Shown here piece after piece: positions 22,146 to 54,083 of a stretch of 64,000 bases of DNA. Position 1 is the stretch's first letter; each line of letters starts with the position of its first letter. The notes beneath the pieces are model-generated. The model was given only the letters and a program-made list of their open reading frames with translations. It did not search any database and was not told the DNA's origin. The DNA comes from Bacillota bacterium (GTDB taxonomy: Bacteria; Bacillota; Clostridia; Christensenellales; SZUA-584). Where the stretch lies: the NCBI GenBank assembly GCA_023410595.1, contig JAEYPO010000016.1, positions 17,121 through 81,120 on the forward strand. Reading direction: 5' to 3'. Position numbers and translations under genes: made by a program.

Positions 22146-22415
22146 GCCGTGCACCCGGAGATCGAAATAGCGCTACAAGAGGTATCACGGCAGGTTGCTC
22201 TGAGCAGACTTATCCGAGGCACACATCCAAAACCGCTTACTGCTGCTACCGTCAGGTCCTGACAGGGTTCACGGCTGTCCGTTGCACGGGGCCCACTCTT
22301 CAACGCCCCTTACCGTTTCCATACCTTACAACGCTATGCCTCAAACCGGGGATCAAACCCTGCTATAGCGGATTGCAGGTTCAGGGCACCGCTGGCTCCC
22401 CGTCTGGCACGGCAA
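22146..22415 (-). ncRNA. ffs: signal recognition particle RNA, long Bacillus-type with Alu domain
   Basis: The minus strand reads GCCGTGCCAGACGGGGAGCCAGCGGTGCCCTGAACCTGCAATCCGCTATAGCAGGG... This closely parallels the remembered B. subtilis scRNA 5' Alu domain. The domain IV core is GTCAGGACCTGACGGTAGCAGC. The 5' GCCGTGC pairs with the 3' GCACGGC, and a T-run follows. Confidence 0.85.
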
Positions 22416-36705: not shown

Positions 36706-38103
36706 TTACGGTAACAGGTCGCCGGAACGCGAGAGCGCAAGGCTTTTAAGTTTGGTCGGATTGTTGTATTCGGGGCGTGCGACGCACTCGCGCCATAACA
36801 TATCGAGTATTTTCCCTACGTCAGGCGACGGCTGTATATTAAGAAGCTTCATAATGTCGTTTCCGGAAATGCTGAGCTCCTTAACGCTCCACGGCACGCG
36901 CGTCTTTATCATGCGCTCATATTCTTTCTGCCAGCTGTCGGCGGACTTGACCGGCCCTTCATGCAGGCCCGATCCCCAGAAATCCGCCTTTCGCAGCTCT
37001 ATAAGTAGTGGGAAAAGGCCTTTGCCCACCTTTACGGCGCGGCGGCGGATAGCCTTTGGCTTTGCCCTGCCTTCGAGGTCGAACATATGGTTTCGCACGA
37101 GCGGCGGCACAACGGACTTAACGCTGTTCTCGAACCGCAGGCGCTCAAGCTCTTCTGCTGCCAGCGTCTCGCCTATTATCTCGTGGCGATACATATTGCC
37201 GCCCGAGCGCAGCGCCGCGGGCTTTCCTATATCATGCAGTAACGCGGCGAGGCGCAGCACCAAAGCAGCAGGCGCGCACGCGCACGCGTGTATGCCGTGG
37301 CCCAGCACGTCGTATTTATGATATGTTTCCGACTGACCTACGCCGTCGCCTTCCCAAAGGCGAGGCAGTATATACGGTATCGCACCCGCTTCGCGCAGTA
37401 TCTGAAGGCCTCTTTCAGGAGCGTCTTCGCTATTCAGCGTTTCATACTTAACATCCGCCATCAGTATCTTCTTAAGCTCGTCTCTCTTGCGCTCGGCGGA
37501 GATATCGGCAAGAAGCCCCGCCCTTGCCTTTGCAGCCTCCATTAAATCTGCGCTTACTGAAAACCCCAGCTCGGCGGCGAAGCGCGCCATACGCATTATC
37601 CTGAGGCCGTCGTCGCTTATCGTTATATCCGGATCGGCGGCGGCGCGTATTATGCCTTGCTCCGCGTCCGCAAGTCCGCGCCCCGTAGGGTCTATCGTTT
37701 CTCCCGTTTCGAGGTCGAGGTAGAGCGCGTTCACCGTAAAATCACGGCGCGCTGCGTCCTCCCTCATATCGCCGGTGAATTCGACTCTTTTTGGCCTGTG
37801 TTCGCCGCCCGGCGGATAAAAATCCCTGCGGAACGTCGTATGCTCGAACGCGTACTTCCTGCCTCCCTGCGTTAAATGCACCTCTATCGTTCCCAGCTCG
37901 GGCGCCTTTTCTATTACGGTAAGCCCCTCGGCACGTAAAAAAAGCGCGGCCGCCTCAGGCAGCGCGCGCGAACACACATCTAAGTCTCCTCCGGAAAGAG
38001 AAAGAGCCATATTCCTCACATATCCGCCAACGAGATACAGCTTGTACCCGTTATCGGCAAATATACTTGAAAGCTTAAGTACACTTTCGGGCAGGCCGTT
38101 CAT
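36706..38103 (-). CDS. cca: CCA-adding tRNA nucleotidyltransferase with HD domain
   Basis: Class II nucleotidyltransferase motif LVGGYVRN...GGDLDVC and a later HD block LLHDIGK. Start at ATG 38103 overlaps the dapF stop (ATGA). The ORF-track start at 38211 lies inside dapF. Confidence 0.8.
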   Translation of the reverse strand: MNGLPESVLKLSSIFADNGYKLYLVGGYVRNMALSLSGGDLDVCSRALPEAAALFLRAEGLTVIEKAPELGTIEVHLTQGGRKYAFEHTTFRRDFYPPGGEHRPKRVEFTGDMREDAARRDFTVNALYLDLETGETIDPTGRGLADAEQGIIRAAADPDITISDDGLRIMRMARFAAELGFSVSADLMEAAKARAGLLADISAERKRDELKKILMADVKYETLNSEDAPERGLQILREAGAIPYILPRLWEGDGVGQSETYHKYDVLGHGIHACACAPAALVLRLAALLHDIGKPAALRSGGNMYRHEIIGETLAAEELERLRFENSVKSVVPPLVRNHMFDLEGRAKPKAIRRRAVKVGKGLFPLLIELRKADFWGSGLHEGPVKSADSWQKEYERMIKTRVPWSVKELSISGNDIMKLLNIQPSPDVGKILDMLWRECVARPEYNNPTKLKSLALSRSGDLLP

Positions 38104-38924
38104 ACGCAGAGCTTCGCCGTATACACGCAGGCCGCCGGCCCCGTCATCATCACCCGTCCATCCTCTAAGCACTCTATCATCAGCTCGCCCCCCGTTAAAT
38201 GCACCTTGCACTTCGCGTCTACGAGGCCTTTTTTATATAGCAGCGCCACGCTGCCGCTCGCGCCCGTGCCGCACGCCAGCGTCGGGCCCGCGCCGCGCTC
38301 CCAAACACGGTTCTTTATATTCTGCCTGTCCAGTATCTGCACGAAGTCTACGTTAGTTTTCCTGGGGAAAATCTCATGCTTTTCTATCGCGGGGCCAAGA
38401 GCCTCGAAATCTATTGCCTCCGTATCATCGACCAGCATTATCGTATGCGGCACGCCCATAAGCACAGATGAAACGGTAACGTTTATACCCGCGGCGACGA
38501 TATCCACATCAAACGGGCTACCTTCGCCCCTCATGGGTATCTGGGTGCGTTCAAAAGACGGCTTGCCCATGTCCACCCTTACGCCCGTAACGATGCCGTC
38601 CTGCACATAAAGCCTCGGGTGCATGATCCCCGCGAGCGTTTCTACGGCTAGATTCGTCTTACTGGCTATGCCTTTTTCATAGACGTACTTGGCAAAGCAG
38701 CGAATTCCGTTGCCGCACATCTCCGCCTCACTGCCGTCCGCGTTTATTATGCGCATTTTAAGGTCGGCCGTCTCGGAGGGAAGCACGACGAGTATTCCAT
38801 CCGCGCCGACGGACAAGCCCCTTTGGCAAAGCTGCTTTGCAAGAGCGTTCCAGTCCCTTTCCGTATCGTCGTCCTCGAATATCAGAAAGTCGTTTCCAAG
38901 CCCATGCATCTTGGTAAATTCCAT
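38100..38924 (-). CDS. dapF: diaminopimelate epimerase
   Basis: 274 aa with the N-terminal FTKMHGLGNDF and both catalytic Cys regions (EMCGNGIRC and LACGTGASG). Confidence 0.9.
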   Translation of the reverse strand: MEFTKMHGLGNDFLIFEDDDTERDWNALAKQLCQRGLSVGADGILVVLPSETADLKMRIINADGSEAEMCGNGIRCFAKYVYEKGIASKTNLAVETLAGIMHPRLYVQDGIVTGVRVDMGKPSFERTQIPMRGEGSPFDVDIVAAGINVTVSSVLMGVPHTIMLVDDTEAIDFEALGPAIEKHEIFPRKTNVDFVQILDRQNIKNRVWERGAGPTLACGTGASGSVALLYKKGLVDAKCKVHLTGGELMIECLEDGRVMMTGPAACVYTAKLCV

Positions 38925-39079
38925 AACAGTCCTCCAATCGTTCTTCTACTGCCATTATACTTGCCAAGTAGCGCTACTGCAACATTCCCATGGTTTTTTG
39001 AGCGTTTTATTTGACGCATGCCGCTTTGTGGTATATATTTCTGCTGTAGCAAAAAAACACTTTTCAGGAGGTGCGCTCC

Positions 39080-40378
39080 ATGCGGATGTACGACGTGATA
39101 CTCAAAAAACGTAACGGTGGCCGACTCTTGCGCGAAGAGATAGAATTCTTTATATCCGGTTATGTTAAGGGCGATATTCCCGACTATCAGGCGTCGGCAT
39201 TCATGATGGCCGTCTATTTTCGCGGCATGGACGACGAGGAGACGTTCTATCTGACGGACGCCATGACGCGTTCGGGCGATACGGCGGACCTCTCCTCTTT
39301 AGGAACCGTGGCCGACAAGCACTCTACGGGCGGAGTCGCGGACACCACTACGCTTATCGTTGTTCCTCTCGTCGCGGCGTGCGGCCTGAAAGTCGCCAAG
39401 ATGTCGGGGCGAGGCCTCGGGCACACCGGCGGCACGCTCGACAAACTGGAGTCCATACCCGGCATGAATATATCTCTTACAATGGAAGCGTTTTTAAAAC
39501 AGATAAACTCGGTGGGCGCGGCAGTGATGGGACAGACTATGAAGCTCTGCCCCGCCGACAAGATGCTTTATTCGCTGCGTGACGTAACGGCTACGGTCGA
39601 AAGCATACCGCTAATAGCGAGCAGCATAATGAGCAAGAAAATAGCTTCGGGCGCGAATATCATAATGCTGGACGTTAAGACGGGCAGCGGCGCTTTTATG
39701 GGCAGTTTTGAGGATTCTAAGGCGCTTGCCAAAAAGATGGTCGCCATAGGAAAGCGATCGGGCAAAAACACCGCGGCGCTCATAACCGATATGAGCCAGC
39801 CGCTCGGAAATGCCGTGGGAAATGCTCTCGAAGTAGAGGAGGCCATAGAGATTCTTCAGGGAAAGACAAAAGGCGACCTTTTAACCGTCGCCATGGCGCT
39901 CGCTTCAGGCATGCTTAAGCTCGCTGGGATAGCAGAAAACGAAAGCGCCGCGCTGCAAATGCTTGAAAACGCGCTCTCTTCGGGCAGGGCGCTTGATAAG
40001 CTCGGTGAGATAATAAGCGCCCAAGGGGGTAACGCGGACATAGTTCGCGACGTATCGCTGCTGCCGCGTGCGGCGTTCATTGATAATGTGTACGCCGACA
40101 AAGAGGGGTATTTAAGCGAAGTGGATTGCCGGGCTCTGGGCACCGCAGCCAGCCTGCTGGGCGCGGGACGCATCAAAAAGGACGACAGCATTGATTTGTC
40201 CGTTGGGTTTATAATGAAGAAGCGCATAGGCGACCGCATAAACAGGGGCGATAAGCTCTGCGAGGTGCACGCAAACGACAAGTATAAGCTGGAGCAGGCA
40301 AAGCGCGATATATCAAATTGTATTACGATAACGCACGAGACGACAAGCCCCGTGCTTATATATGAGTATATAGCATGA
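39080..40378 (+). CDS. pdp: pyrimidine-nucleoside phosphorylase
   Basis: Motifs DKHSTGGVADTTTL and SGRGLGHTGGTLDKLESIPG. ATG 39080 with AGGAGG 8 nt upstream. Confidence 0.9.
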   Translation: MRMYDVILKKRNGGRLLREEIEFFISGYVKGDIPDYQASAFMMAVYFRGMDDEETFYLTDAMTRSGDTADLSSLGTVADKHSTGGVADTTTLIVVPLVAACGLKVAKMSGRGLGHTGGTLDKLESIPGMNISLTMEAFLKQINSVGAAVMGQTMKLCPADKMLYSLRDVTATVESIPLIASSIMSKKIASGANIIMLDVKTGSGAFMGSFEDSKALAKKMVAIGKRSGKNTAALITDMSQPLGNAVGNALEVEEAIEILQGKTKGDLLTVAMALASGMLKLAGIAENESAALQMLENALSSGRALDKLGEIISAQGGNADIVRDVSLLPRAAFIDNVYADKEGYLSEVDCRALGTAASLLGAGRIKKDDSIDLSVGFIMKKRIGDRINRGDKLCEVHANDKYKLEQAKRDISNCITITHETTSPVLIYEYIA

Positions 40379-40395
40379 TATTGGCGGGCATGTTC

Positions 40396-40425
40396 TGTGG
40401 ATAACGTGGACAATTCGGTGGATAA
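40396..40425. promoter_or_regulatory. DnaA-box cluster I (three co-oriented boxes)
   Basis: TGTGGATAA (40396-40404, perfect), cGTGGAcAA (40405-40413) and gGTGGATAA (40417-40425). Confidence 0.7.
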
Positions 40426-40747
40426 CCTTGCGTTTACGCGTGCATAACCGCCATAATACTCTATTATTCGCCAAAATATCACACGTCGGCCGTTTATTTC
40501 TCTCCGGCTGACATCGGCTATATAGGGGTAAAAAAACAGCAGACATAACGTTTTTTTCCTTAAAGTATGCAATACTAACGAAAACTAAAGAAAAACGGAC
40601 ATAATCCTATGAATATTAATATTTATTTAATATTTCCGTAATAAACTAAACAGATTATTCATTTCGGCGCTTTTCGGCTTTGTTTACAAATTGATAACAT
40701 GCCAAAGTAAGGTTTATACTTGAATCATACTGTAAAAAGGGGCTGCT

Positions 40748-41950
40748 ATGAGTAAAAGGCTGGTTACGTGCTTTCTTTCGATTATCCTTGCGCTGATTCT
40801 TTTTCCTTCCGGCGCGTTAGCTACCGATAGATACGAAATACTTAAACTTGGCGATCAGGACGAATATGTTGAGCAGCTTCAGGAACGGCTTCTGGAGCTT
40901 GGATATATGACCGGCAAAGCGACCGGTTATTTTGGTACGGTAACGCAGCGCGCCGTAATGGAGTATCAGAAAGACAAGGGTCTCGCAATAGACGGCAAGG
41001 CAGGCCCCAAGACGCTGTCTTCGCTGATGGGCAAAGGCTTTTCGCTGCCGCCCGGCAGGCTTGTCACGCAAAACAAAGCAAGCGAGGTGGGCCCCGGTGA
41101 CAGAGGCGACGAAGTGGTAAGCATACAGCAGCGCCTTAAAGACCTTGAATGTTACGAATATTCCAGCATAACGGGATTTTATGGGCCGGTTACCGAGCAG
41201 GCGCTCGCGCGGTTTCAACGTACGAACGGGCTTGACGAGACGGGTGTGGCGGACATAAAGACCTCCTCGCTGCTTTTTTCGGAAGACGCTAAATACTTCT
41301 GCATCTACCCGGGCGACAGGGGCGACGACGTTTCGGCGCTGCAGAAGCGGCTTTCTGAGCTGGGATATTACACTTTCGGCAGAATAACGGGATATTTCGG
41401 CCCGGTGACGGAACAGGCATTAATGGAATTTCAGGCGCAAAGCGGCATTTCCGTGGACGCGAAGGCGGGCAAAAACACCCGGTCGATTCTTTACTCCGGT
41501 TCGGCCGCAGCATGGGACGGCAAAGACAGGGTGGCTGGCAAGCCCGCTGCCGAAAAGAGTGAAGAAGCCGTCGACAGGATGCTGAATTTTGCAAAACAGC
41601 AGCTCGGTAAAAAGTATTCGTACTCCTCGGAAGGCCCGGCGGCTTTCGACTGTTCGGGGCTCGTGTATTACGTGCTTAAGTATATGGGCATATCTACGGC
41701 AAGGTACAGCGCGAGCGGATTTTCGGGTGTGGACAGTTGGATAAGGATATCGAACAAAAACGCGCTGCAGCCCGGGGATCTTTTGTTCTTCAAGTCGGAC
41801 AAAAGCGAGCGCATTTCTCACACCGGCATATATTTGAGCGGCGGGGAGTTCATCAACGCAAGCTCCAGCGACGGGCAGGTAAAGATAAGCTCGCTCGAAG
41901 GATATTACGACAGGAATTTTAAGCTGGCGAGAAGAGTGAGCTTCAATTAA
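40748..41950 (+). CDS. secreted cell-wall hydrolase: four PG_binding_1-like repeats plus a C-terminal NlpC/P60 (C40) peptidase
   Basis: Signal peptide, then four repeats of ...GDxGDxVxxLQxRLxxLGYxxxxxTGYFGxxTxxAxxxFQ... The C-terminal block is FDCSGLVYYVL...HTGIY. Confidence 0.85.
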   Translation: MSKRLVTCFLSIILALILFPSGALATDRYEILKLGDQDEYVEQLQERLLELGYMTGKATGYFGTVTQRAVMEYQKDKGLAIDGKAGPKTLSSLMGKGFSLPPGRLVTQNKASEVGPGDRGDEVVSIQQRLKDLECYEYSSITGFYGPVTEQALARFQRTNGLDETGVADIKTSSLLFSEDAKYFCIYPGDRGDDVSALQKRLSELGYYTFGRITGYFGPVTEQALMEFQAQSGISVDAKAGKNTRSILYSGSAAAWDGKDRVAGKPAAEKSEEAVDRMLNFAKQQLGKKYSYSSEGPAAFDCSGLVYYVLKYMGISTARYSASGFSGVDSWIRISNKNALQPGDLLFFKSDKSERISHTGIYLSGGEFINASSSDGQVKISSLEGYYDRNFKLARRVSFN

Positions 41951-41983
41951 GAAAGCGCATTGCCATACCGAAAAACATTTTTG

Positions 41984-42287
41984 TTATCCCCGTTAAAATA
42001 AAATATCCGGGGTTTTTTTATCCACTTAATATACACAATTATGGACTTAATAAGATTAAGCAATTCGCAGACGCACGCGCTAAACGCTGCAAAGCGGCAG
42101 TATTATTCGTACATCAGTAAATACGAATAATTTTTATGTGGAAAGCGTGTGGATGTGGATAATGTGGAAAGAAATACGTACTGAAAATAATTAAAAACGT
42201 GGACAAAGTTTGTACCAGTGATGCTATTGTGAGGGCAGAATTATTGTGATAGAATATACGAAGTTAGGGGTGATATGTTTATCCGTA
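41984..42287. promoter_or_regulatory. DnaA-box cluster II (oriC, dnaA-upstream part, includes the dnaA promoter region)
   Basis: TTATCCcCg (41984), TTATCCACt (42018), four head-to-tail boxes TGTGGAaAg / TGTGGATgt / TGTGGATAA / TGTGGAaAg (42137-42171), cGTGGAcAA (42198) and TTATCCgta (42279). AT-rich tracts lie between them. Confidence 0.7.
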
Positions 42288-42407
42288 TTCGGATAGCTTC
42301 GCGGAAACAGCGGAAGAACGTCATTAAAGCAAGCAAAAACGGCCTTTCTTTCGCTTTTCACATTTTACAGCATATTTTCCGCTAAATATTTCTGAGGTGC
42401 TTTTTTT

Positions 42408-43763
42408 GTGGATACTTTTTTGATACTTTGGGAAAAAGCTTTGGAAATACTGAAGCAAGACCTGGTCAGCGTGAGGTACGACACGTGGATAAAAACACTG
42501 TCTCCGGTGAAGAAATCCGATGGAATCTATTATTTTCAGACACTCAACCCCATACATAAAGAGCTTGTCGAAAAAAGTTACCGTAACATCATAATAAACG
42601 CCATGGACATGGCGATGCAGTCTTTAGGGCTCGACGTTGAAAACATCAGCGTCGTGTTTCTCGATACCGAAGAAGCTGCGAAAATAAAGCAGCCGCAGTC
42701 TTTAGGCGATTCTTCTTCAATAAAAACCACGCTCAATCCCACATATACTTTTGACTCGTTTGTCGTTGGCTCGTCTAACGAGTTCGCGCACGCTGCCGCC
42801 GTCGCGGTCGCGGAAAATCCCGGGCGAACATACAATCCTCTGTTCATATACGGCAAGACAGGGCTTGGCAAGACACACTTGATGCAGGCAATAGCCAACC
42901 ATATATCTGAGAACAAGGAAAGCTATACGGTAATGTTCGTAAAGAGCGAGCCGTTTTTAAATGACCTCATACACGCGATAAGGACTTCAAAAACCGAAGA
43001 ATTCCGCAAAAGGTACAGAAAAGCGGACGTGCTGCTCATTGACGATATACAGTTCATAGCCGGCAAAGAGAGTACGCAGGAGGAATTTTTCCATACTTTC
43101 AATGATCTGCACGAGAACAACAAACAGATCATACTTTCTTCCGACAAGCCGCCGAAGGAGATACCGCTCTTAGAGGAACGGCTGCAGTCGCGGTTTGAGG
43201 GCGGCCTCATAGCCGACATACAGCCGCCGAACTACGAAACTAAGCTTGCGATACTTATTAAAAAAGCAAAAGACATAGCCGCGCGCGACGGGTTTAAGTA
43301 TGAAATAAACCAGGAGATATTGGATCTTATAGCGACGAAGGTGTCTTCCAATATACGCTCGCTTGAAGGCGCGCTCAACAAGATAATAGCTTATACCGTG
43401 CTTAACGGCAGAACGCCCAACGTAATAGAAGCGGAGATTGCTATACGCGATTTTCTTACCACAACGACGACGAAGAAGATATCCGCAAAGCAGATACTGC
43501 AGCTTGTGTGCGAGTATTACGAGATATCCGAAGACGAGATAACGAGCAACAAAAAGAATCAGAACATAGCTTACCCGCGGCAGATAGCGATGTTTTTAAC
43601 GCGCAAGCTAATGGACATGTCGTATAAATCCATAGCCGAGATGTACGGCAAGAGCGATCATACGACCGTAAAGCACGCGTACGATAAAATAGAGCGCGAG
43701 CTCAAGAAAAATCTTGAGGTAAGGACGCTTGTGGATGACTTCATCGCAAAGCTGCGCGAATAG
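42408..43763 (+). CDS. dnaA: chromosomal replication initiator protein DnaA
   Basis: 451 aa with Walker A GKTGLGKTHL, the DDIQF box and the C-terminal DNA-binding end ...DHTTVKHAYDKI. GTG start with GAGGTG 8 nt upstream. Confidence 0.97.
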   Translation: MDTFLILWEKALEILKQDLVSVRYDTWIKTLSPVKKSDGIYYFQTLNPIHKELVEKSYRNIIINAMDMAMQSLGLDVENISVVFLDTEEAAKIKQPQSLGDSSSIKTTLNPTYTFDSFVVGSSNEFAHAAAVAVAENPGRTYNPLFIYGKTGLGKTHLMQAIANHISENKESYTVMFVKSEPFLNDLIHAIRTSKTEEFRKRYRKADVLLIDDIQFIAGKESTQEEFFHTFNDLHENNKQIILSSDKPPKEIPLLEERLQSRFEGGLIADIQPPNYETKLAILIKKAKDIAARDGFKYEINQEILDLIATKVSSNIRSLEGALNKIIAYTVLNGRTPNVIEAEIAIRDFLTTTTTKKISAKQILQLVCEYYEISEDEITSNKKNQNIAYPRQIAMFLTRKLMDMSYKSIAEMYGKSDHTTVKHAYDKIERELKKNLEVRTLVDDFIAKLRE

Positions 43764-43967
43764 TGGACAGGCTGTTTACAAAGGTGGATTAAGATCATTA
43801 AGCCAAAAGAAGTTTTGCACGCGTTTTAATATGCTCATACACGGTGTGTGCAAAAAAACTGTGCGGCAGAAAACATAGAAAGCTCTCTTTCCATGCGGCT
43901 TAAATGGGTTGTCCACGCTATATACATTACTACTATTACTGTTACTACTTAATAAACAAGTGGAAAT
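43762..43967. promoter_or_regulatory. DnaA-box cluster III / predicted unwinding region (oriC, dnaA-dnaN part)
   Basis: Degenerate boxes aGTGGAcAg (43762), gGTGGATtA (43782), TTgTCCACg (43909) and aGTGGAaAt (43959), plus an AT-rich tract up to the dnaN RBS. Confidence 0.65.
43918..43950. repeat. DnaA-trio array
   Basis: The array starts immediately after box TTGTCCACG. The top strand reads CTA TAT ACA TTA CTA CTA TTA CTG TTA CTA CTT. The bottom strand, written 3' to 5', reads GAT ATA TGT AAT GAT GAT AAT GAC AAT GAT GAA. Seven of 11 triplets fit the 3'-[G/A]AT-5' trio motif. The core closely resembles the remembered B. subtilis CTACTATTACTTCTACTA. Confidence 0.6.
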
Positions 43968-44007
43968 ATAATTACACAACAATGAACTTACTTTCAAGGA
44001 GAACGGA

Positions 44008-45111
44008 ATGAAACTGGTCTGTGAAAAGAACGAACTTCAGAAAAACGTAAATATTGTGACAAAGGCCGTAGCGCCCAAGTCGCCCGTATATGTGCTCGAA
44101 GGTGTATATATAAAAGCCGAAGACAAAGGGATAACGATGTTTGGCAGCGACGGCACGCTTTCCATAAAGTGCTCTTTGGAGGCGACCGTACTCGAGCCTG
44201 GAGATATAGTGCTGCCCGCGAGGCTGCTTGCAGAAATACTCGCCAAGTTTGAAGACTGCGAGATATCGATGTATACGGAAGGCAATAACATGATAATGCA
44301 GTGCGGCCATTCCACGACGACGCTGTGTTATATGGACCCGTCCTCTTACCCCGCGTTCCCGGCCTGCGACAGGACAAAGGGAGTTACTGCGTTTTCCAAT
44401 CAGATAGTTTCAATGATAGACCAGACGGTGTTCGCGACGTCGGTGAGCGAAGACAAGCCCATACTTACGGGAATACTGCTTGAATTCGAAAGTGAAAAGC
44501 TTAAAATGGTGGCGCTCGACGGCTACCGTCTCGCCGTAAGGCAGGAAAGGATACAGTCGGGGACGGACGCGGGTGAAGTCGTTGTGCCCTCAAGGTCGAT
44601 GCGCGAGATAGCGCGCATACTGCCCGAGGAAGAGGAGACAGTTAAGCTTTATGCGGGCGACAGCCTTGTTACCGTCGTTTGCGGCGATATAGAGATAGCG
44701 ACGAGAGTGCTTCAGGGCGACTATGTAAAATACAAAAACATACTGCCCACGGAACATACGACGAGGGTAATTATAAACACGCTTAATTTTTTAAGCAGCC
44801 TCGAGCGGGCGAGCATACTGGCGAGGCAGTCGAAGACTAACCTTGTCAACCTCTCCATGGAGGGCTCGCTGATGACTATAACGTCGGATTCTGAGATAGG
44901 CAAGGCGCGCGAAGAGGTGGATATTGCTCTTACTGGAAAGAGCCTCGATATATCGTTCAACTCGCGATACCTGCTGGATGTTTTAAAAGAGGTAAAGGAC
45001 GACGAGATAGTGCTCGATTTGAATACAAATATAAGCCCGTGCATGATACACCCTGTGCAGGGCGGCAGCTTTTTGTATCTCGTACTGCCTGTGAAAACGA
45101 GCAATGGCTGA
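44008..45111 (+). CDS. dnaN: DNA polymerase III beta sliding clamp
   Basis: 367 aa with typical DnaN length and sequence (MKLVCEKNELQKNVNIV...DGYRLAVR...). Immediately downstream of dnaA. Confidence 0.95.
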   Translation: MKLVCEKNELQKNVNIVTKAVAPKSPVYVLEGVYIKAEDKGITMFGSDGTLSIKCSLEATVLEPGDIVLPARLLAEILAKFEDCEISMYTEGNNMIMQCGHSTTTLCYMDPSSYPAFPACDRTKGVTAFSNQIVSMIDQTVFATSVSEDKPILTGILLEFESEKLKMVALDGYRLAVRQERIQSGTDAGEVVVPSRSMREIARILPEEEETVKLYAGDSLVTVVCGDIEIATRVLQGDYVKYKNILPTEHTTRVIINTLNFLSSLERASILARQSKTNLVNLSMEGSLMTITSDSEIGKAREEVDIALTGKSLDISFNSRYLLDVLKEVKDDEIVLDLNTNISPCMIHPVQGGSFLYLVLPVKTSNG

Positions 45112-45164
45112 TAGTATGAAATTACTCAAGGCTCTCTTTTAAGAGGGCCTTTTACATTGATATA

Positions 45165-45420
45165 AAAGCGGGCGGACAGTGACGGTCCTCTATTCGTATG
45201 GGCAATAAACTTCACTGACGTTCGTTTATCACCTCATACCATACAGCTAACGCTAGTCACAGAACATTCATCTCGCTTTATCCGCCACTGGCGGCGCTTG
45301 CTTACGGTTCCGCCCCTATGGATATTAAACAACCACTATTTAATAACTTTATATAAAATAGCACCTCATCCGGCGTTTAGCGCCGCCTTCACCTTTAGGA
45401 GAAGGCTTATGACGTAATAT
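45165..45420. other. hairpin-rich non-coding segment downstream of dnaN (possible degenerate relative of repeats A/B, or an unannotated RNA)
   Basis: Nested complementary pairs GGGCGGA (45173)/TCCGCCC (45311), GTGAC/GTCAC and GTATGG/CCATAC. Local hairpins CCGCC-ACT-GGCGG and CGGCG-TTTAG-CGCCG. No convincing ORF. Confidence 0.3.
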
Positions 45421-45553
45421 ATTTTTTTCAAATGAATTGGGGATTGTCTAAAGAAAAAGAAAGTTATAGTATATAATCGGCATGTTTGTAATTAATTATC
45501 ATTAACGTTACTTTTATTTGATGATTTACTAATAACGATTTTAGGAGAGTTAG

Positions 45554-46942
45554 ATGAAAAAGATAAAACTTATTTATACGGTATTAGTTATTATGTTAAT
45601 AATGACTGCATGTCGGTCTACGCCGGAAGAACCGATTGTAATAGATAAAGGTGATGACAATATGGATTTTGTACAAAGCAATTCCATAAGTACTTCTATA
45701 AGCAGCCAATATCCGTCTAGCTGGACGGAGAAAATACAGAACAACGAAGGATCAGACTTTATAGATATAAATGCGACGGTTAAATTTCCTGCTATCAACT
45801 CAATACCGATAATTTGTGTGAAGCCTCATGCATTCTCACAGGGAGAAGTAGAAAATCTTGTACAATATTTTTCTCAAGGAAAACCTCTTTATTCAACAGA
45901 TGAAACTATGACAAAATCAGATATTGAGATGCACGTAATTGAGTTAAGGGGGATTCTTGAAGAGGCAAAGGATGGGAATGAAGACTTGGGCACACCTGAA
46001 GAAATACAGAAACAGATTGATTCACTTGAAGAGCAATATGAGAATGCTCCTGAAACACGAAATAATACCATAGTTGATTCAACGTTGAAAATACAGCCCG
46101 GAACTTCAAGAGAAGTACTGGATGTGGCTATTGACATAAGTAACGGTGAATATGCAAGAATAAGCCTAATTAATTGCAATGAATCTAATTATAATACCGT
46201 TTTTACTTATCAAAATGGTCAATTATATAAACCGGTGGAAGAGTTATATGGAAAAGACGCTGAAGGACTAAATACTACACTTATTAAAGCCACTCAAGAG
46301 GCAGAAGCAATGTTAAAAAATTTGGGCATAGTTGAATATGAAGCTGTTTCAATAGAGACAGGTGCAAAGCAATTAAACTCAGATAGTCTTGATCTAGAAC
46401 AGCAAGGCTATATTATTAAATATAGGTTGAAGAAAAATGATTTAATGTATTTATTTTGTGAAGGACGAGATTACACCGGTATTACTATTGATGAAAAAAC
46501 GGGCTTTTATGTATATGAAAGTACTAGAGAAATCGTAGAAGAATTTGCACCGACTTGGAGCATCAGCGAAATAAGCATTAATATTGATGACTCTGGTGTA
46601 ACATTTTTTAACTGGAATAATCCTGTTGAAATTGTTGAAAGCATAAGTGATAATGTAGGTCTTTTGCCTTTTAATGAAGTACAGCGAATTTTTACTCAGC
46701 AAATGAAGTCTGCTTATATATATAATAGCAATGGCTTGTTATATCATGTTGACAAGATTGAGCTTGGTTTGGCAGCAACAGCCCATAAAGATAATATCGG
46801 ACAATTTCTAATGGTTCCAGTTTGGATTTTCTATGGATATTGCGAAGATACAAATATGCCGGATGCATATCAAGAAGCAAAAACAAAGGGGTATACATCA
46901 ATTTTAGTGTTAAATGCCGTCAACGGGAGCATAATTAAATAA
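45554..46942 (+). CDS. lipoprotein, paralog of the BlaR1-like ectodomain, encoded in an AT-rich islet
   Basis: 462 aa with the lipobox LIMTAC and RBS AGGAGA. It shares blocks with 31678-34191: INATVKFPAINSIPIICVKPHAFS...GKPLY vs VNADIVSPGNIKIPVMRLKPKNFS...GEPLY. The C-terminal blocks MVPVWIF...LNAVNGSII match TVPVWDF...VNAINGTII. Confidence 0.75.
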   Translation: MKKIKLIYTVLVIMLIMTACRSTPEEPIVIDKGDDNMDFVQSNSISTSISSQYPSSWTEKIQNNEGSDFIDINATVKFPAINSIPIICVKPHAFSQGEVENLVQYFSQGKPLYSTDETMTKSDIEMHVIELRGILEEAKDGNEDLGTPEEIQKQIDSLEEQYENAPETRNNTIVDSTLKIQPGTSREVLDVAIDISNGEYARISLINCNESNYNTVFTYQNGQLYKPVEELYGKDAEGLNTTLIKATQEAEAMLKNLGIVEYEAVSIETGAKQLNSDSLDLEQQGYIIKYRLKKNDLMYLFCEGRDYTGITIDEKTGFYVYESTREIVEEFAPTWSISEISINIDDSGVTFFNWNNPVEIVESISDNVGLLPFNEVQRIFTQQMKSAYIYNSNGLLYHVDKIELGLAATAHKDNIGQFLMVPVWIFYGYCEDTNMPDAYQEAKTKGYTSILVLNAVNGSIIK

Positions 46943-47013
46943 TTAATATTTAGCCCATCCGAACTTTTAAGCAATAAAAACGGTATAAGTCTTGCCACAG
47001 AATGAAATTCGTA

Positions 47014-47739
47014 TCAGTTGTCGTGATGTTCTTTTGACTTTAAGAATGTCCGCTCGAGCCAGCTTTTGAGGCGGTCTTCTATCAAGGGAGCGTATTTAAT
47101 TGAGAGTATGAACACGACCACGGCGGCGCAGACTATAGCGATCCAGCCCCATTCGGGTATTTCTATCATGCCGGAGCCCAGCATAGCGGAAAACAGCAGG
47201 CCCCATGGGCGGGTCAGTATTACCAAGAGCGCGAAATACGGCACGCTCATCGCCGAAAGCCCCGCGAGCAGGCACAGCACGTCGTCAGGAAAAAACGGCA
47301 TAATGAACATTATTATCAGTACGACCTTCTGCCGCGAAGACACGACCGTCATGTATTTTTCAATCACAGTTTTGCCCACTATGCGCTCCACAAGCGGCTT
47401 GCCGAACAGCCTGCCCAGCAGAAAAGCTACTAAAGAGCCTAAAAAAATGGCGCCGGTAGATATGAGAAACGCCGGAAAGAAACCGAACAGCATGCCGCCC
47501 GCGATCGTAGTGACGTTGCCGGGTATGGGCGACACAATTACCTGAAAGAATTGCAGCAGGAAAAACGCGAGCGGAGCGAGCGCGCCGAACGAGGCTACGT
47601 ATTTGCGCACCTCTTCGTTGGATTCAAAAAGACGGAACCAGCCGGCCCCCTTGCCAATGTAATAAAGTATTATGAGGGCCGCGACGAGAGCGACCAGCAC
47701 GCAGCACCATATAATCTGCTTCTTAGTAAATTTTCTCAT
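47014..47739 (-). CDS. TVP38/TMEM64 (DedA/SNARE-associated) family membrane protein
   Basis: 241 aa and polytopic, with a typical family block ...VSPIPGNVTTIAGGMLFG... Confidence 0.8.
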   Translation of the reverse strand: MRKFTKKQIIWCCVLVALVAALIILYYIGKGAGWFRLFESNEEVRKYVASFGALAPLAFFLLQFFQVIVSPIPGNVTTIAGGMLFGFFPAFLISTGAIFLGSLVAFLLGRLFGKPLVERIVGKTVIEKYMTVVSSRQKVVLIIMFIMPFFPDDVLCLLAGLSAMSVPYFALLVILTRPWGLLFSAMLGSGMIEIPEWGWIAIVCAAVVVFILSIKYAPLIEDRLKSWLERTFLKSKEHHDN

Positions 47740-47883
47740 GCAGACAGTATAACATATGCTATGCTAAACTTTCACTATTTTTGTTTGCAGTAACAACGGG
47801 AAAGAGTCTTAAAATATAGTGTTACATTAAGAGGGCTATCAACGGTTGTCTCCCTTTGAGATATATGATGACTATTAAAATAA

Positions 47884-47910
47884 ACAGAGAAGGCGCACAC
47901 TGTGCGCCTT
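47884..47910 (-). terminator. intrinsic terminator after purL
   Basis: The arms AAGGCGCACA and TGTGCGCCTT are perfectly complementary. On the minus strand they are followed by CTCTGTTTATTTT. Confidence 0.65.
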
Positions 47911-47943
47911 TCATATCCCTTCAGGCAAGGGAGGCATTAAAAA

Positions 47944-50900
47944 TCATAGAAAGTACCTGACGCCCGCCTCGAATATGCGCTGGTCCTTATTGCCGGGTAT
48001 GTTTTTCATGTTGCCGGGAGTAAAGCGCTCGCTGTGCGCCATCTTGCCCAGTACTCTGCCGTCGGGAGACATAAGGCCTTCCACCGCCAGCATAGAGCCG
48101 TTGGGGTTGCCCTCTCCCATCGTGGGAACCCCCAATTCGTCCACATACTGCGTGGCTACCTGGCCGCGCTGATACAATGACAGCGCCTCTTCCCCGGACG
48201 CTACGAATCGCCCCTCGCCGTGGGAGACTGCGACGGCGTGTATATCTCCGGGCGAGCAAAGCGAAAGCCACGGCGATAAGTTTGACGTTATTCGCGTTCT
48301 TACCATGCGCGAAACATGTCGGCCTATGGCGTTGAACGTGAGTGTCGGGCTGTCTTCTCTCATGTCGCGTATCTCGCCGTACGGCACAAGCCCCGACTTT
48401 ATCAGCGCCTGAAAGCCGTTGCAGATGCCCAAAATGAGCCCGTCGCGCGCAAGCAGGCCTTCTATGTCCCGCCTTATTTTCGGGGCGCGCAGCACGGCTG
48501 TTATAAACTTGCCCGAGCCGTCGGGTTCGTCGCCGCCCGAGAAGCCGCCGGGTATCATCAGTATCTGGCTGCTTTCTAAAAGCCGGGCCAGCTCATCTAT
48601 GCTGTAATCAATATCGCCCGCAAGTATGTTGCGCATCACGAAAACAGAGGTCCGCCCGCCCGCTTGCTCAAACGCGGCGGCCGAATCGTACTCGCAGTTA
48701 GTGCCCGGAAACACGGGTATTACTATGCGCGGTTTTGCTTTTTCTCCCGAGTATACGCGTATATTTTTACACTCGTATAACATATCTGGTATCTTTTCGC
48801 CGCTTGCGGCAGAAATGGGATATACGCCAGCCAAAGTCGCCTCATACGCCTTGCGGACTAAGTACAGCTCTACCGACTCGCCGCTAAAAGTTATAGAGCT
48901 TCCTCCCGTCTCCCCTATGCGCTCGAATGGAAGATCGTCTCCCTCGAGTATGAGGTCGCCGTACGCTTTTTGGCAAAGGTCATTGATATCGCCTCTAAGC
49001 TCAGCGCCGATCGAATTGCCGAGAGCCATCTTCGCTGCCGCCGCGAGCGCGCCGCCGCGCTCTATGGCATACGCGGAGATAATACGCTTTTGTTTAATAA
49101 GTTCGTAAACTTTTGCGTATACCGACTTTATGCTTTCAAAGTCGGGCATGCCGCTGGCGTCGCGCGATATACGCGCGCGGTATATTCCGCTGCCTTCCCG
49201 CTTGAATTCAGGCGAGATTATATTATCCACGTTTTCCGTGCACAGGGCGAACGAAACGAGTGTGGGCGGCACGTGAATATGTTCAAACGAACCGGACATC
49301 GAATCCTTGCCGCCTATTGCCGGAACCTTTAGATTCTTTTGCGCCCACCACGCGCCCAGCAGCGCCGCAAGCGGTTTACCCCACGCATCCTCCCCGCCCA
49401 TGCGCTCGAAATACTCCTGCAGCGTAAGGTACGCGCGCGATATATCGCCGCCCGATGCCGCTAATTTTGCGAGCGATAAAACTATAGAATATACCGCGCC
49501 CAGTAAAGGGTTGCTTTCCATCAGATACGGATCGAAGCCGTATGAGAAAAGCGTCGAAGTATCGCACTGCCCTTCGGCGGCAACCTTTGCAGCCATGGCC
49601 TGCACGGGCGTAAGCTCATGCCTGCCTCCGAGAGGCATGCTGACGGTGTTTGCGCCTATCGTAGAGTCGAACATCTCAATTAGGCCTTTTTTGGAGCATA
49701 TGCTGAGGTCGGAGACAAGCGACAGAAGCGTATCCTTAAATGTATCAGCGACATGCTCGCTGAAAAGCCCGTCGGTATTGAGACCGGAGACGCGTGCGTT
49801 TGCCGTCGCCGTCGCACCGTTGGTGTTTAAAAATTCCCGCTTTATGCTGACTATTGGCTTGCCGCGCCAATACAGCTCCATGCGGGCGTCGTCCGTCACT
49901 TCAGCGACAAGGTCCGCGTGAAGATTCTCTTCTCCTGCGAGCTCAAGAGCTCTGCTTAAGTCTTTCGGGTCTATCACGACGGCCATGCGCTCCTGGCTCT
50001 CGGATATAGCGAGCTCCACGCCGCCGAGGCCTTCGTATTTTCTGCGCACGGAGTCTAAATTAACGCGCACGCCGTCCGCGAGCTCTCCTATGGCCACGCA
50101 TACGCCACCCGCGCCGAAGTCGTTGCAGCGCTTTATTAGCGTGGAAAACTCCTTGTTTCTATAAAGCCGCTGAAGCTTGCGCTCCGTTAGCGGGTTGCCC
50201 TTTTGCACCTCCGCGCCGCATGTGTCTATAGACTGCTTATCGTGCGCCTTTGATGAGCCGGTGGCGCCGCCGCAGCCGTCGCGCCCCGTCGCTCCGCCCA
50301 GCAGCAGTATAACGTCGCCCGGCTGTGGCTCCATTCGCACTACGTTTTCCGCGGGCGCCGCCCCTATTACGGCGCCTATCTCCATGCGCTTCGCCTTATA
50401 GCCCTCGTGGTATATTTCGTCGACAAGGCCGGTTGCGAGACCAATCTGGTTGCCGTAGGATGAATAGCCGTGCGCGGCCTCTTTGCATATTTTCCTTTGA
50501 GGCAGCTTGCCGGGCAGAGTGTCTTTTACGCTCTCGCGCGGGTCGCCGCTGCCTGTTACGCGCATGGCGTGGTAGACGTACGAGCGCCCCGAAAGCGGGT
50601 CGCGTATAGCTCCGCCAAGGCACGTCGCCGCGCCGCCGAACGGCTCTATCTCCGTCGGGTGGTTGTGCGTCTCGTTCTTGAACATTATGAGGTAATCTTG
50701 CAGCTTGCCGCCCACGGATACGCTCTCGCGTATCGAGCACGCGTTTATCTCGTCGGATATATCGAGGCCGGGATGCCCCTCTTTTATAGCCTGCTTCGCA
50801 TAAAGTGTCGCTATATCCATGAGGCAGATATCCTTTTGTTTTTCCCCATGAACCGATTTGCGTGTTTTCAGGTATTCGCCGTATATGTTCCGGGCAGTTT

Positions 50901-51633
50901 CAGCAGTTTCATCGAACGACACGTTATCGAGCCTTGTCAGAAACGTCGTGTGGCGGCAGTGATCCGACCAGTATGTGTCTATTACGCGTATCTCGGCAAG
51001 CGTCGGGTCGCGCTTCTCGTCATGTTTAAAATAATTTTGCACGAACGATATGTCCTCAAAGCTCATCGCGAGGCCGTATGACGTTATGAATGTCTTTAGC
51101 TCGCCGGCAGCATATTCGCAAAAGCCGTAAAGTATCTCCACGTCGGCGGGAGCGGGAAGGTTTTCCCTGAGCGTTTCGGGCAGCGCTTCGCCCGCCTCGC
51201 GCGAGTCGACGGGGTTTATTACATAACGCTTTATGTCCTCCGCGTCCACTTCGCTTGCGCCCGACAGCACGTAGACAGTCGCGCACCGCACGACAGGGCT
51301 AATCTTAAGCGAAGGCAGCAGCAGCCCGATGCACTGCGCGGCGCTGTCCGCCCGCTGGTCGTACTGCCCCGGCAGGTATTCTGTGGCGAATAGTATATCG
51401 CCTTTGTCTGCGGAAAACGCGCCGCAGTAAACGGCGTCGGCAGCAGGCTCCGAAAACACGTTTTTAACTGCCGACCCAAACTCCTCTTCGCCGAGACCCT
51501 CTATATCGTAACGTATCAGTATGCGTACGTTTTGCAGCGCTTTTTTGCCCAGTGTGTCGCGAAAATCAACCAAAGCCGCTTTCGCGCTGATATCAAAGCC
51601 GGGTTTTTTCTCCACATATATGCGTCTTACCAT
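47944..51633 (-). CDS. purL: phosphoribosylformylglycinamidine synthase, single-chain large form
   Basis: About 1229 aa containing the PurS-like, FGAM synthetase and C-terminal glutaminase (ICNGFQAL) regions. ATG 51633 with AAGGAG 6 nt upstream. The ORF-track start is at 51678. Confidence 0.95.
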   Translation of the reverse strand: MVRRIYVEKKPGFDISAKAALVDFRDTLGKKALQNVRILIRYDIEGLGEEEFGSAVKNVFSEPAADAVYCGAFSADKGDILFATEYLPGQYDQRADSAAQCIGLLLPSLKISPVVRCATVYVLSGASEVDAEDIKRYVINPVDSREAGEALPETLRENLPAPADVEILYGFCEYAAGELKTFITSYGLAMSFEDISFVQNYFKHDEKRDPTLAEIRVIDTYWSDHCRHTTFLTRLDNVSFDETAETARNIYGEYLKTRKSVHGEKQKDICLMDIATLYAKQAIKEGHPGLDISDEINACSIRESVSVGGKLQDYLIMFKNETHNHPTEIEPFGGAATCLGGAIRDPLSGRSYVYHAMRVTGSGDPRESVKDTLPGKLPQRKICKEAAHGYSSYGNQIGLATGLVDEIYHEGYKAKRMEIGAVIGAAPAENVVRMEPQPGDVILLLGGATGRDGCGGATGSSKAHDKQSIDTCGAEVQKGNPLTERKLQRLYRNKEFSTLIKRCNDFGAGGVCVAIGELADGVRVNLDSVRRKYEGLGGVELAISESQERMAVVIDPKDLSRALELAGEENLHADLVAEVTDDARMELYWRGKPIVSIKREFLNTNGATATANARVSGLNTDGLFSEHVADTFKDTLLSLVSDLSICSKKGLIEMFDSTIGANTVSMPLGGRHELTPVQAMAAKVAAEGQCDTSTLFSYGFDPYLMESNPLLGAVYSIVLSLAKLAASGGDISRAYLTLQEYFERMGGEDAWGKPLAALLGAWWAQKNLKVPAIGGKDSMSGSFEHIHVPPTLVSFALCTENVDNIISPEFKREGSGIYRARISRDASGMPDFESIKSVYAKVYELIKQKRIISAYAIERGGALAAAAKMALGNSIGAELRGDINDLCQKAYGDLILEGDDLPFERIGETGGSSITFSGESVELYLVRKAYEATLAGVYPISAASGEKIPDMLYECKNIRVYSGEKAKPRIVIPVFPGTNCEYDSAAAFEQAGGRTSVFVMRNILAGDIDYSIDELARLLESSQILMIPGGFSGGDEPDGSGKFITAVLRAPKIRRDIEGLLARDGLILGICNGFQALIKSGLVPYGEIRDMREDSPTLTFNAIGRHVSRMVRTRITSNLSPWLSLCSPGDIHAVAVSHGEGRFVASGEEALSLYQRGQVATQYVDELGVPTMGEGNPNGSMLAVEGLMSPDGRVLGKMAHSERFTPGNMKNIPGNKDQRIFEAGVRYFL

Positions 51634-51753
51634 TCGTGTCTCCTTTTGAGCCTGATAATAAAGAGAGTATATATGCATTCAGAGCCGTATACAATAGAAA
51701 AGGCAGATAAAAAACAAGATGAAAGACAAAATGTTCGGGATTAATAAATTTTA

Positions 51754-51762
51754 TGTGGATAA
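51754..51762. promoter_or_regulatory. isolated perfect DnaA box between purL and the remB-like gene
   Basis: TGTGGATAA in the divergent intergenic region. A single box, so functional status is uncertain. Confidence 0.35.
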
Positions 51763-51895
51763 ATTGCGGAAGAAATTCAAATCCCTCTTTTAATATCCAT
51801 AGAATTTGATATAATATATATATTATATAGTAGATTTATTTCGGGTTTCGCATAAAGTTACTTTATTGGTATTTTAAAAGAAGGCAGGGGAATTG

Positions 51896-52144
51896 ATGGT
51901 GCTGCACATAGGAAAAGACGCAATGGTCCCGCTTAAGGACGTCGTGTTCATACTCGACTACAAGGAAGCAAAGACTAACGACGATACGAACAACGCTCTG
52001 AAGCGTCTGGGAGACACAGCGCACAACATATACATAGAGAAGTATAATATAAAATCCATAGTCGTGACGCGATTCCTCGATAAGTTTTTCATATACTATT
52101 CGCCCATCTCCCCCGCGACGCTATATAAACGTTCAAGGTCATGA
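51896..52144 (+). CDS. remB: DUF370 / RemB-like small protein
   Basis: Resembles B. subtilis YaaB/RemB: (MVLHIGKD..VVFILDY...IKSIVVT...IYYSPISPATLYKR). Conserved position directly upstream of gyrB. Confidence 0.8.
   Translation: MVLHIGKDAMVPLKDVVFILDYKEAKTNDDTNNALKRLGDTAHNIYIEKYNIKSIVVTRFLDKFFIYYSPISPATLYKRSRS

Positions 52145-52166: not shown

Positions 52167-54083
<1,917 letters not shown>

Follow-up and report, generated by a model that had tools for sequence, protein, structure and literature searches.

The window, which is the whole 64-kb stretch of DNA that was analyzed, contains a dnaA gene followed by dnaN, and the spacer between the two genes carries two DnaA box-like sequences, a run of triplets, and an AT-rich tract. 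The features of this locus are the following.

42408-43763, + strand: dnaA, 451 aa, with the Pfam domains Bac_DnaA, Bac_DnaA_C, and DnaA_N
43909-43917, + strand: box1, TTGTCCACG, 2 mismatches to TTATCCACA; the stronger, trio-distal half of a tandem pair, pointing at the trios
43918-43926, + strand: box2, CTATATACA, a decayed second DnaA box with 3 mismatches to the consensus
43927-43929, + strand: gap TTA, occupying the "GC cluster" position
43930-43950, - strand: DnaA-trio array, top strand CTA CTA TTA CTG TTA CTA CTT, bottom strand 3'-GAT GAT AAT GAC AAT GAT GAA-5'
43951-43995, no strand assigned: AT-rich tract, ~75% AT, extending to the dnaN ribosome-binding site
43996-44001, + strand: dnaN ribosome-binding site AAGGAG, read from the sequence, with AGGAG kept in relatives
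44008-45111, + strand: dnaN, 367 aa, with all three Pfam DNA_pol3_beta domains

Positions 43909-43967 read TTGTCCACGCTATATACATTACTACTATTACTGTTACTACTTAATAAACAAGTGGAAAT. After box1, the top-strand triplets are CTA TAT ACA TTA CTA CTA TTA CTG TTA CTA CTT, followed by AATAAACAAGTGGAAAT. An earlier note on this DNA had described the box TTGTCCACG at 43909-43917 with 11 triplets behind it, 7/11 of which are YTA (3'-[G/A]AT-5' on the complement), and our count agreed with it exactly. The note began the array at the edge of the box; we place it at 43930-43950, or at 43927-43950 if the TTA is counted. The shorter interval holds 7 triplets, with 5 YTA and a central T in 7/7, and the longer one holds 8. 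Read on the bottom strand, the trios have a central A in 7/7 cases (8/8 with TTA), and 5 of them (or 6) are [G/A]AT, the first two being GAT. The bottom strand of 43930-43950 is the strand that DnaA is expected to bind, and the gap TTA could be an extra trio (3'-AAT-5').

Box1 and the first trio are 12 nt apart (9 + 3), or 9 nt if TTA is taken as a trio. A GC-rich cluster (~4 bp) between the box and the trios is absent from the window, where the gap is TTA. The earlier note had reported AT-rich bases beside the box and no GC cluster; that absence stands, and what it took for a spacer (or for trios 1-3), CTATATACA, is a decayed box2. The AT-rich tract up to the dnaN ribosome-binding site, which it had also pointed out, was found at 43951-43995 and is probably where the duplex unwinds or the helicase enters.

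The strand opposite the trios has been described as the DnaD recognition element (DRE), with pairs of 5'-TnnT-3' (PMC10201434). In the window, seven overlapping 5'-TnnT-3' starts lie on the + strand in 43927-43950 (the published minimum is two), a number that follows nearly automatically from the trio sequence, and the top strand opposite the trios is a possible candidate DRE.

The window DnaA aligned end to end with B. subtilis DnaA (8BTG, the cryo-EM entry for the basal unwinding system, or BUS; E 8e-111), and the protein is intact. The ssDNA-binding (ISM) isoleucine (I188 in the window, I190 in B. subtilis) and the arginine finger (R262 and R264, respectively) are both kept; the ISM residue and the arginine finger have roles in filament formation on trios (PMC8287927). 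The site lies where the GC skew of the window switches from negative to positive, the cumulative minimum being at ~38-40 kb. GC content is ~50% overall and 41-57% per 2-kb window, and the earlier description of the genome as GC-rich was overstated.

Parts of a probable basal unwinding system in the dnaA-dnaN spacer

A BUS consists of one or more DnaA boxes, a spacer, and DnaA-trios and was predicted in 1755/2070 origins (85%; Pelliciari 2021, PMC8287927). Among these predictions, a tandem box pair is present in 57%, the upstream box is the better match, and a second box is not obligatory (PMC8287927). The limits are ≤2 mismatches for the strong box, ≤4 for the weaker box, and ≤16 bp for the spacer, whose length peaks at 10-13 bp, with 13 bp the commonest (PMC8287927); the spacer is 12 nt in B. 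subtilis, S. aureus, and L. monocytogenes (PMC8287927). There are at least 3 consecutive trios, which have a central A on the bottom strand and the consensus 3'-GAT-5' and are strongest beside the box (PMC8287927). BUS activity has been demonstrated with DnaA from several Firmicutes (PMC8287927). The window contains each of these parts, namely a box in the proper orientation, a second box, a spacer, and trios, together with an AT tract, a location at the origin, and the DnaA residues named above. Box1 is the counterpart of B. subtilis DnaA-box#6, and box2 is the counterpart of DnaA-box#7.

The GC-rich cluster (~4 bp) was described in B. subtilis and many Firmicutes. The 2021 BUS search program asks only for a gap of ~4 bp and ignores its composition (PMC8287927), so a GC cluster does not define the BUS as it is currently delimited. 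Strand separation in vitro requires the upstream box only, whereas the downstream box lowers the DnaA concentration needed (PMC8287927), which makes a decayed box2 plausible. With 2 mismatches in box1 and 3 in box2, the affinity of the pair may be low. Reversal of box#6 or of box#6/7 inactivates incC, and a distal box works by looping (PMC6669920); in the window, the box orientation is the correct one, and several distal boxes are present (43730-43738, 43762-43770, 43783-43791, and the upstream clusters). Text searches of the 2019 EMBO J, 2022 bioRxiv, and 2023 Nat Commun papers turned up no relevant test of the GC cluster or of the distance between box and trios, so the effect of 12 versus 13 nt can be judged only from the published spacer distribution.

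Conservation of the block among relatives

Relatives were identified by a protein scan with the window DnaA against one genome per species, which returned six MAGs with 71-80% identity (L001-L006), labeled Christensenellaceae, Christensenellales, or Clostridia. Five further contigs of the clade came from a metagenome pattern scan (DnaA identity 69-80% where the contig includes dnaA). The clade set comprises L001-L006, L081, L083, L104/L109, and L114, and 11 distinct relatives were compared.

The dnaA-dnaN spacers of the six MAGs are of similar length and mostly cannot be aligned with that of the window. In a MAFFT alignment of the window and the six protein-found relatives, 24/41 invariant columns fall within a 43-nt block, 43910-43952, and the remaining ones are mostly at the dnaA stop codon (box-like TAGGTGGATAG) and the dnaN RBS/ATG. 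In all relatives, the layout is box1, box2 directly after it, a 4-nt gap, and CTA CTR NTA CTN NTN CTR YWW AAT. Box1 is kept in 11/11 relatives as TTGTCCACG, TTATCCACA, ATATCCACA, TTGTCCACA, and similar sequences, with ATATCCACA in L002 and L005. Box2 is TTATCAACA, TTGTCAACA, GTATCAACA, or TTATAAACA, and it aligns column for column with CTATATACA; since the box2 of the relatives lies at the same columns, CTATATACA is a box2 homolog with three substitutions.

The gap is 4 nt in 11/11 relatives (CCCC, CCAC, TGCA, TAGT, TACA, TATA), compared with 3 nt (TTA) in the window, which places the first trio 9 + 4 = 13 nt from box1 in 11/11 relatives and 12 nt from it in the window. A spacing of 13 nt is not a multiple of 3, and the triplet phase that the earlier note saw running on from the box edge is a coincidence of 9 + 3. 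The note's proposed check, conservation of the triplets in related genomes, came out in its favor for the register and the central base, but not for the phase relative to the box edge.

Trios 1-6 have a central T in every one of the 11 clade sequences. The first trio is CTA throughout, the second is either CTA or CTG, and trio substitutions are confined to CTA, CTG, TTA, ATA, and CTT. The array has seven triplets followed by AAT in all clade sequences. In the five pattern-found contigs, trios 1-4 are partly fixed by the query, whereas the six protein-found relatives are unbiased there; in this unbiased set together with the window, the central T is present in 42/42 positions of trios 1-6. The 40 nt after the trios are 60-80% AT in the relatives, and their sequence is not conserved. 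These data demonstrate that the block is conserved in register and number of triplets within a spacer that has otherwise diverged.

The relatives and the window share the gene order, box1, the position of box2, seven triplets, and the terminal AAT; L081 is identical to the window in box1 and shares 6/7 triplets with it. The relatives differ from the window in having an intact TTATCAACA-like box2 and a 13-nt spacer; in the window, box2 carries three substitutions and the gap is 1 nt shorter. A same-species copy, which could serve as a check on sequencing error in this 1-nt difference, was found neither in the genome scan (best DnaA identity 80%) nor in the metagenome pattern scan.

The metagenome contigs were scanned with a bare DNA pattern, TCCACRNTRTMWACAN{3,4}CTACTRNTACT, which returned 35 contigs. 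A dnaN homolog lies ~70-120 nt downstream in the same orientation in 28/35 of these, and dnaA lies upstream wherever the contig extends that far. Because 28/35 contigs carry the pattern ahead of dnaN, the box-box-trio architecture marks this genomic position with high specificity. Gaps of 4 nt occur in 27 of the 35 contigs and gaps of 3 nt in 8, and the TTA gap of L088, which is like that of the window, indicates that a 3-nt AT-only gap occurs naturally elsewhere. The same layout was found by the DnaA scan in distant Firmicutes, including Clostridium spp. (ATATCAACA GCCC CTACTACTATTACTACTA), Staphylococcus cohnii (TAATCCACA AGCC CTACTACTATTACTA), and Enterococcus.

Seven of the 35 pattern contigs (L096, L102, L112, L094, L098, L103, and L115) have no detectable dnaA or dnaN nearby. 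Three of these are GC-rich (CTA CTG GTA CTG GGG...), and L103 has a long CTG/CTA repeat and a second copy of the box. Origins from distant phyla are one possibility for these seven contigs, and unrelated repeats are another.

In the clade, dnaA sits in the order cca-dapF-pynp-nlpC/P60-dnaA-dnaN, after which come a VTT-domain gene and purL on the opposite strand. The arrangement (36706-51678 in the window; L001-L006, L081, L083, and L114) is kept across relatives and departs from the usual Firmicute order rnpA-rpmH-dnaA-dnaN-recF-gyrB. In the window, dnaN and the VTT-domain gene are separated by 45112-46942, which comprises 440 nt of non-coding DNA and a DUF6034 gene (45554-46942). Since the VTT gene directly follows dnaN in all relatives, 45112-46942 looks like a lineage-specific insertion adjoining the origin. 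Elsewhere in the window, the bacterial large SRP RNA (22147-22412, - strand, 185.8 bits) is the sole Rfam family at gathering score.

Uniqueness, duplex stability, and alternative explanations

The triplet run has no equal in the window. When both strands of the 64 kb were searched for in-phase YTA triplets, the block gave 7/11, compared with 5/11 for the best site elsewhere, and 6/8, compared with 4/8. A BUS-style scan of both strands (a box with ≤2 mismatches, a spacer of 0-16 nt, and ≥3 triplets with central T) returned 47 candidates, with 43909 as the unique top one; it has 8 consecutive NTN triplets, including 6 YTA, and the runner-up has 3 YTA. Shuffling the window 100 times with dinucleotides preserved gave best scores of 1-4, and 0/100 shuffles reached 6. 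Across the 128 kb of strand scanned, neither the region upstream of dnaA nor any other part of the window contained a BUS candidate above 3 YTA.

By nearest-neighbor calculation, 43918-43979 contains both the 30-mer and the 50-mer of lowest stability in the origin region 41950-44010 and ranks within the top 0.4% of the window; the 50-mer in question is 43926-43975. A tract upstream of dnaA, 42011-42060, is nearly as unstable (-53.3 versus -51.8 kcal/mol per 50 nt), and with a margin of only ~1.5, stability alone cannot choose between the upstream and downstream tracts.

Other DnaA boxes around dnaA are as follows.

42018-42206, no strand assigned: dnaA-upstream DnaA-box cluster (oriC1-like), 8 boxes with ≤2 mismatches
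43730-43738, - strand: distal DnaA box TCATCCACA, 1 mismatch, within the dnaA 3' end, also in L083
43762-43770, - strand: weak box-like CTGTCCACT, 3 mismatches, overlapping the dnaA stop codon
43783-43791, - strand: DnaA box-like TAATCCACC, 2 mismatches, not clearly conserved

Boxes with ≤2 mismatches occur at ~2.9 per kb in the window. The dnaA-upstream cluster includes a perfect TTATCCACA at 42154-42162 (-), and relatives keep a convergent box pair at the position of the cluster. In the BUS-style scan, no trio array was found behind any box of 42018-42206. The conservation of the box at 43730-43738 says little because it overlaps conserved coding sequence. The site at the dnaA stop (43761-43771) reads TAGTGGACAGG in the window and TAGGTGGATAG in relatives, which is CTATCCACC on the - strand; this box-like motif ranks second, after the box-trio block, among the conserved islands of the dnaA-dnaN spacer.

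A third cluster of three close minus-strand DnaA boxes (TTATCCACA, TTGTCCACG, and TTATCCACC) lies at 40396-40425, just past the pyrimidine-nucleoside phosphorylase gene and 2 kb upstream of dnaA, with the NlpC/P60 gene in between. It is kept in L002, L003, L004, L005, and L083, and 200 nt beyond its boxes is a stretch, 40601-40650, that is 86-90% AT. The origin region may be tripartite, or this cluster may be a DnaA-titrating one.

Another perfect DnaA box, TTATCCACA at 51754-51762 (-), adjoins 51790-51839 (88-93% AT), where the 30-mer and the 50-mer of lowest stability in the entire window lie. The stretch 51754-51839 lies in a divergent intergenic region, with purL on one side and a small ORF (51893-52144) on the other; a 635-aa ORF, 52176-54083, follows the small ORF and has a GyrB-like N terminus by eye. 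No trio run follows the box at 51754-51762.

Strand opening could take place in the dnaA-upstream intergenic region (41951-42407) or at 40396-40650 instead, with the dnaA-dnaN array being auxiliary or vestigial (for example, DnaA-titrating or dnaN-regulating). Outside the Firmicutes, many bacteria open their origin upstream of dnaA. In the window, the DnaA boxes upstream are also more numerous and better, including the perfect TTATCCACA at 42154 and 40396, and both 42011-42060 and 40601-40650 are about as unstable as the trio region or more so. However, the upstream boxes have no trio run behind them (the best are 1 YTA/5 at 42206(-) and 1/4 at 42145(-)), the downstream array is under tight purifying selection on register and length, unlike a vestige, and Firmicute and Clostridia precedents put unwinding downstream of dnaA (PMC8287927, PMC7561715). 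We consider opening upstream of dnaA to be improbable. The block, which lies 58-100 nt upstream of the dnaN start, could also be an expression element for dnaN, such as a promoter, a DnaA-autoregulation operator, a 5'-UTR structure, or a leader peptide. Its DnaA boxes could be an operator, the trio frame on the + strand is a run of Leu codons, and there is a 35-codon, ATG-started ORF (43905-44012), but no + strand sigma-70-like promoter was called in 43764-44007, and a gathering-threshold scan of the whole window gave no Rfam match in the block. In relatives, each of the frames through the block meets stops or has no start, and no ORF is conserved, since a gap that differs by 1 nt puts box and trios in a different frame relative to each other. 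A small ORF or leader peptide was rejected after three-frame translation of the window, L001, L003, L004, and L006, which contain no conserved frame or start. The invariant central base and free first base are the pattern of DnaA-trios and not of codons or a helix, and an operator role of the boxes is compatible with a BUS and is no replacement for it; an element serving dnaN expression is very improbable as the explanation of the block.

A chance trinucleotide microsatellite (a TAC repeat) beside a weak DnaA-box match is extremely improbable. Short period-3 repeats do arise by slippage, and 2-mismatch boxes are as frequent as stated above (~2.9 per kb), but 0/100 shuffles came near the score of the block, its length is fixed at 7 triplets in 11 relatives whose flanks have diverged beyond alignment, and the same architecture recurs upstream of dnaN across distant Firmicutes. 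The conservation data effectively refute such a chance origin.

Proposed opening mechanism and comparison with known systems

Based on the above results, it is very likely that 43909-43995 is the BUS of this chromosome's replication origin. The proposal of the earlier note, that a Bacillus-like DnaA-trio array beside a DnaA box marks the likely opening site downstream of dnaA, is supported by the anatomy, conservation, and stability of the sequence.

By analogy with B. subtilis, other Firmicutes, and C. difficile, DnaA would bind here, form a filament, and open the strands. ATP-DnaA would bind box1 (TTGTCCACG) as duplex DNA, with weaker binding at the decayed box2 (CTATATACA). A DnaA filament would then grow in a fixed direction onto the bottom strand, with one DnaA-trio per protomer, over 43930-43950 and possibly from the TTA gap. 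By stretching the bottom strand, the filament would open the duplex into the AT-rich 43951-43995, where the helicase would be loaded. The dnaA-upstream box cluster at 42018-42206 probably assists by looping, as in other bipartite Firmicute origins.

A more far-reaching reading is that, with the second box decayed and the GC cluster gone, the filament starts from just one box, itself with 2 mismatches, and runs onto sequence made up of A and T alone, in a register one base off that of close relatives. We consider this unlikely. If it were true and the origin normal, it would be a natural demonstration that box#7, the GC cluster, and the exact box-to-trio distance are all dispensable. The conserved third cluster at 40396-40425 may compensate.

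Taken as a BUS, the element is a well-conserved, ordinary copy of a known bacterial origin-opening element. Its lineage-specific points are only the decayed box2, the 3-nt all-AT gap in place of a 4-nt one, and the variable "GC cluster." The general picture is unchanged, since the element was already predicted in 85% of origins and shown experimentally in several Firmicutes. The analysis fixes the likely origin-opening site for an uncultured Christensenellales-type genome, and the clade provides a natural-variation series for the BUS model, in which box1, the central base, and the register and count of the trios do not change, whereas the "GC cluster" varies freely, with forms from CCCC to TATA or TTA, and decay of box2 is tolerated. 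The result is a comparative data point for DnaA-trio mechanics and origin annotation that leaves the model unchallenged.

With E. coli oriC (R1/DUE), the window shares polarity, in that TTATCCACA reads toward the unwinding element. According to Pelliciari Table S1/S2, E. coli has a trio-like TAG GAT TAT with a 10-nt spacer. Unlike the window, its origin lies away from dnaA and has 13-mer repeats, IHF-assisted ssDNA recruitment, a single proximal box, and only 3 weak trios.

In C. difficile, DnaA-dependent P1 sensitivity maps to the dnaA-dnaN region beside a closely similar trio string, CACCTACTACTATTACTACTATGA, and needs both oriC1 and oriC2 (PMC7561715). C. difficile oriC2 and the window both belong to class Clostridia, with box clusters on both sides of dnaA, and both have a trio array (CACCTACTACTATTACTACTATGA in C. 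difficile) ahead of the DUE in the dnaA-dnaN spacer. They differ in that unwinding in C. difficile was seen by P1-nuclease mapping, whereas in the window it is predicted, and in that the C. difficile neighborhood is rnpA-rpmH-dnaA-dnaN, compared with dapF-pynp-nlpC/P60-dnaA-dnaN in the clade of the window.

Among the closest known systems is B. subtilis incC, with DnaA-box#6/#7, DnaA-trios, and an AT-rich 27-mer (Richardson 2016/2019, Pelliciari 2021/2023). The row for B. subtilis 168 in Table S1/S2 is TTATCCACA/AATCCACA/GGCC/CTACTATTACTTCTACTA with a 12-nt spacer (Pelliciari 2021, PMC8287927), and the string CTACTATTACTTCTACTA that the earlier note gave for B. subtilis is correct by this table. 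The two systems differ in box1, which has 2 mismatches in the window and 0 in B. subtilis, in box2, which is more decayed in the window (CTATATACA), and in the gap, where a GGCC cluster in B. subtilis stands against TTA in the window, so that an 8-mer second box plus a 4-nt GC gap corresponds to 9 + 3. They are alike in their location between dnaA and dnaN, in tandem boxes directed toward the trios, in a 12-nt distance from the strong box to the trios, in trios on the complement of the dnaA coding strand, and in an AT-rich tract after the trios, and their trio strings, CTACTATTACTGTTACTA at 43930-43947 of the window and CTACTATTACTTCTACTA in B. subtilis, match at 16/18 positions.
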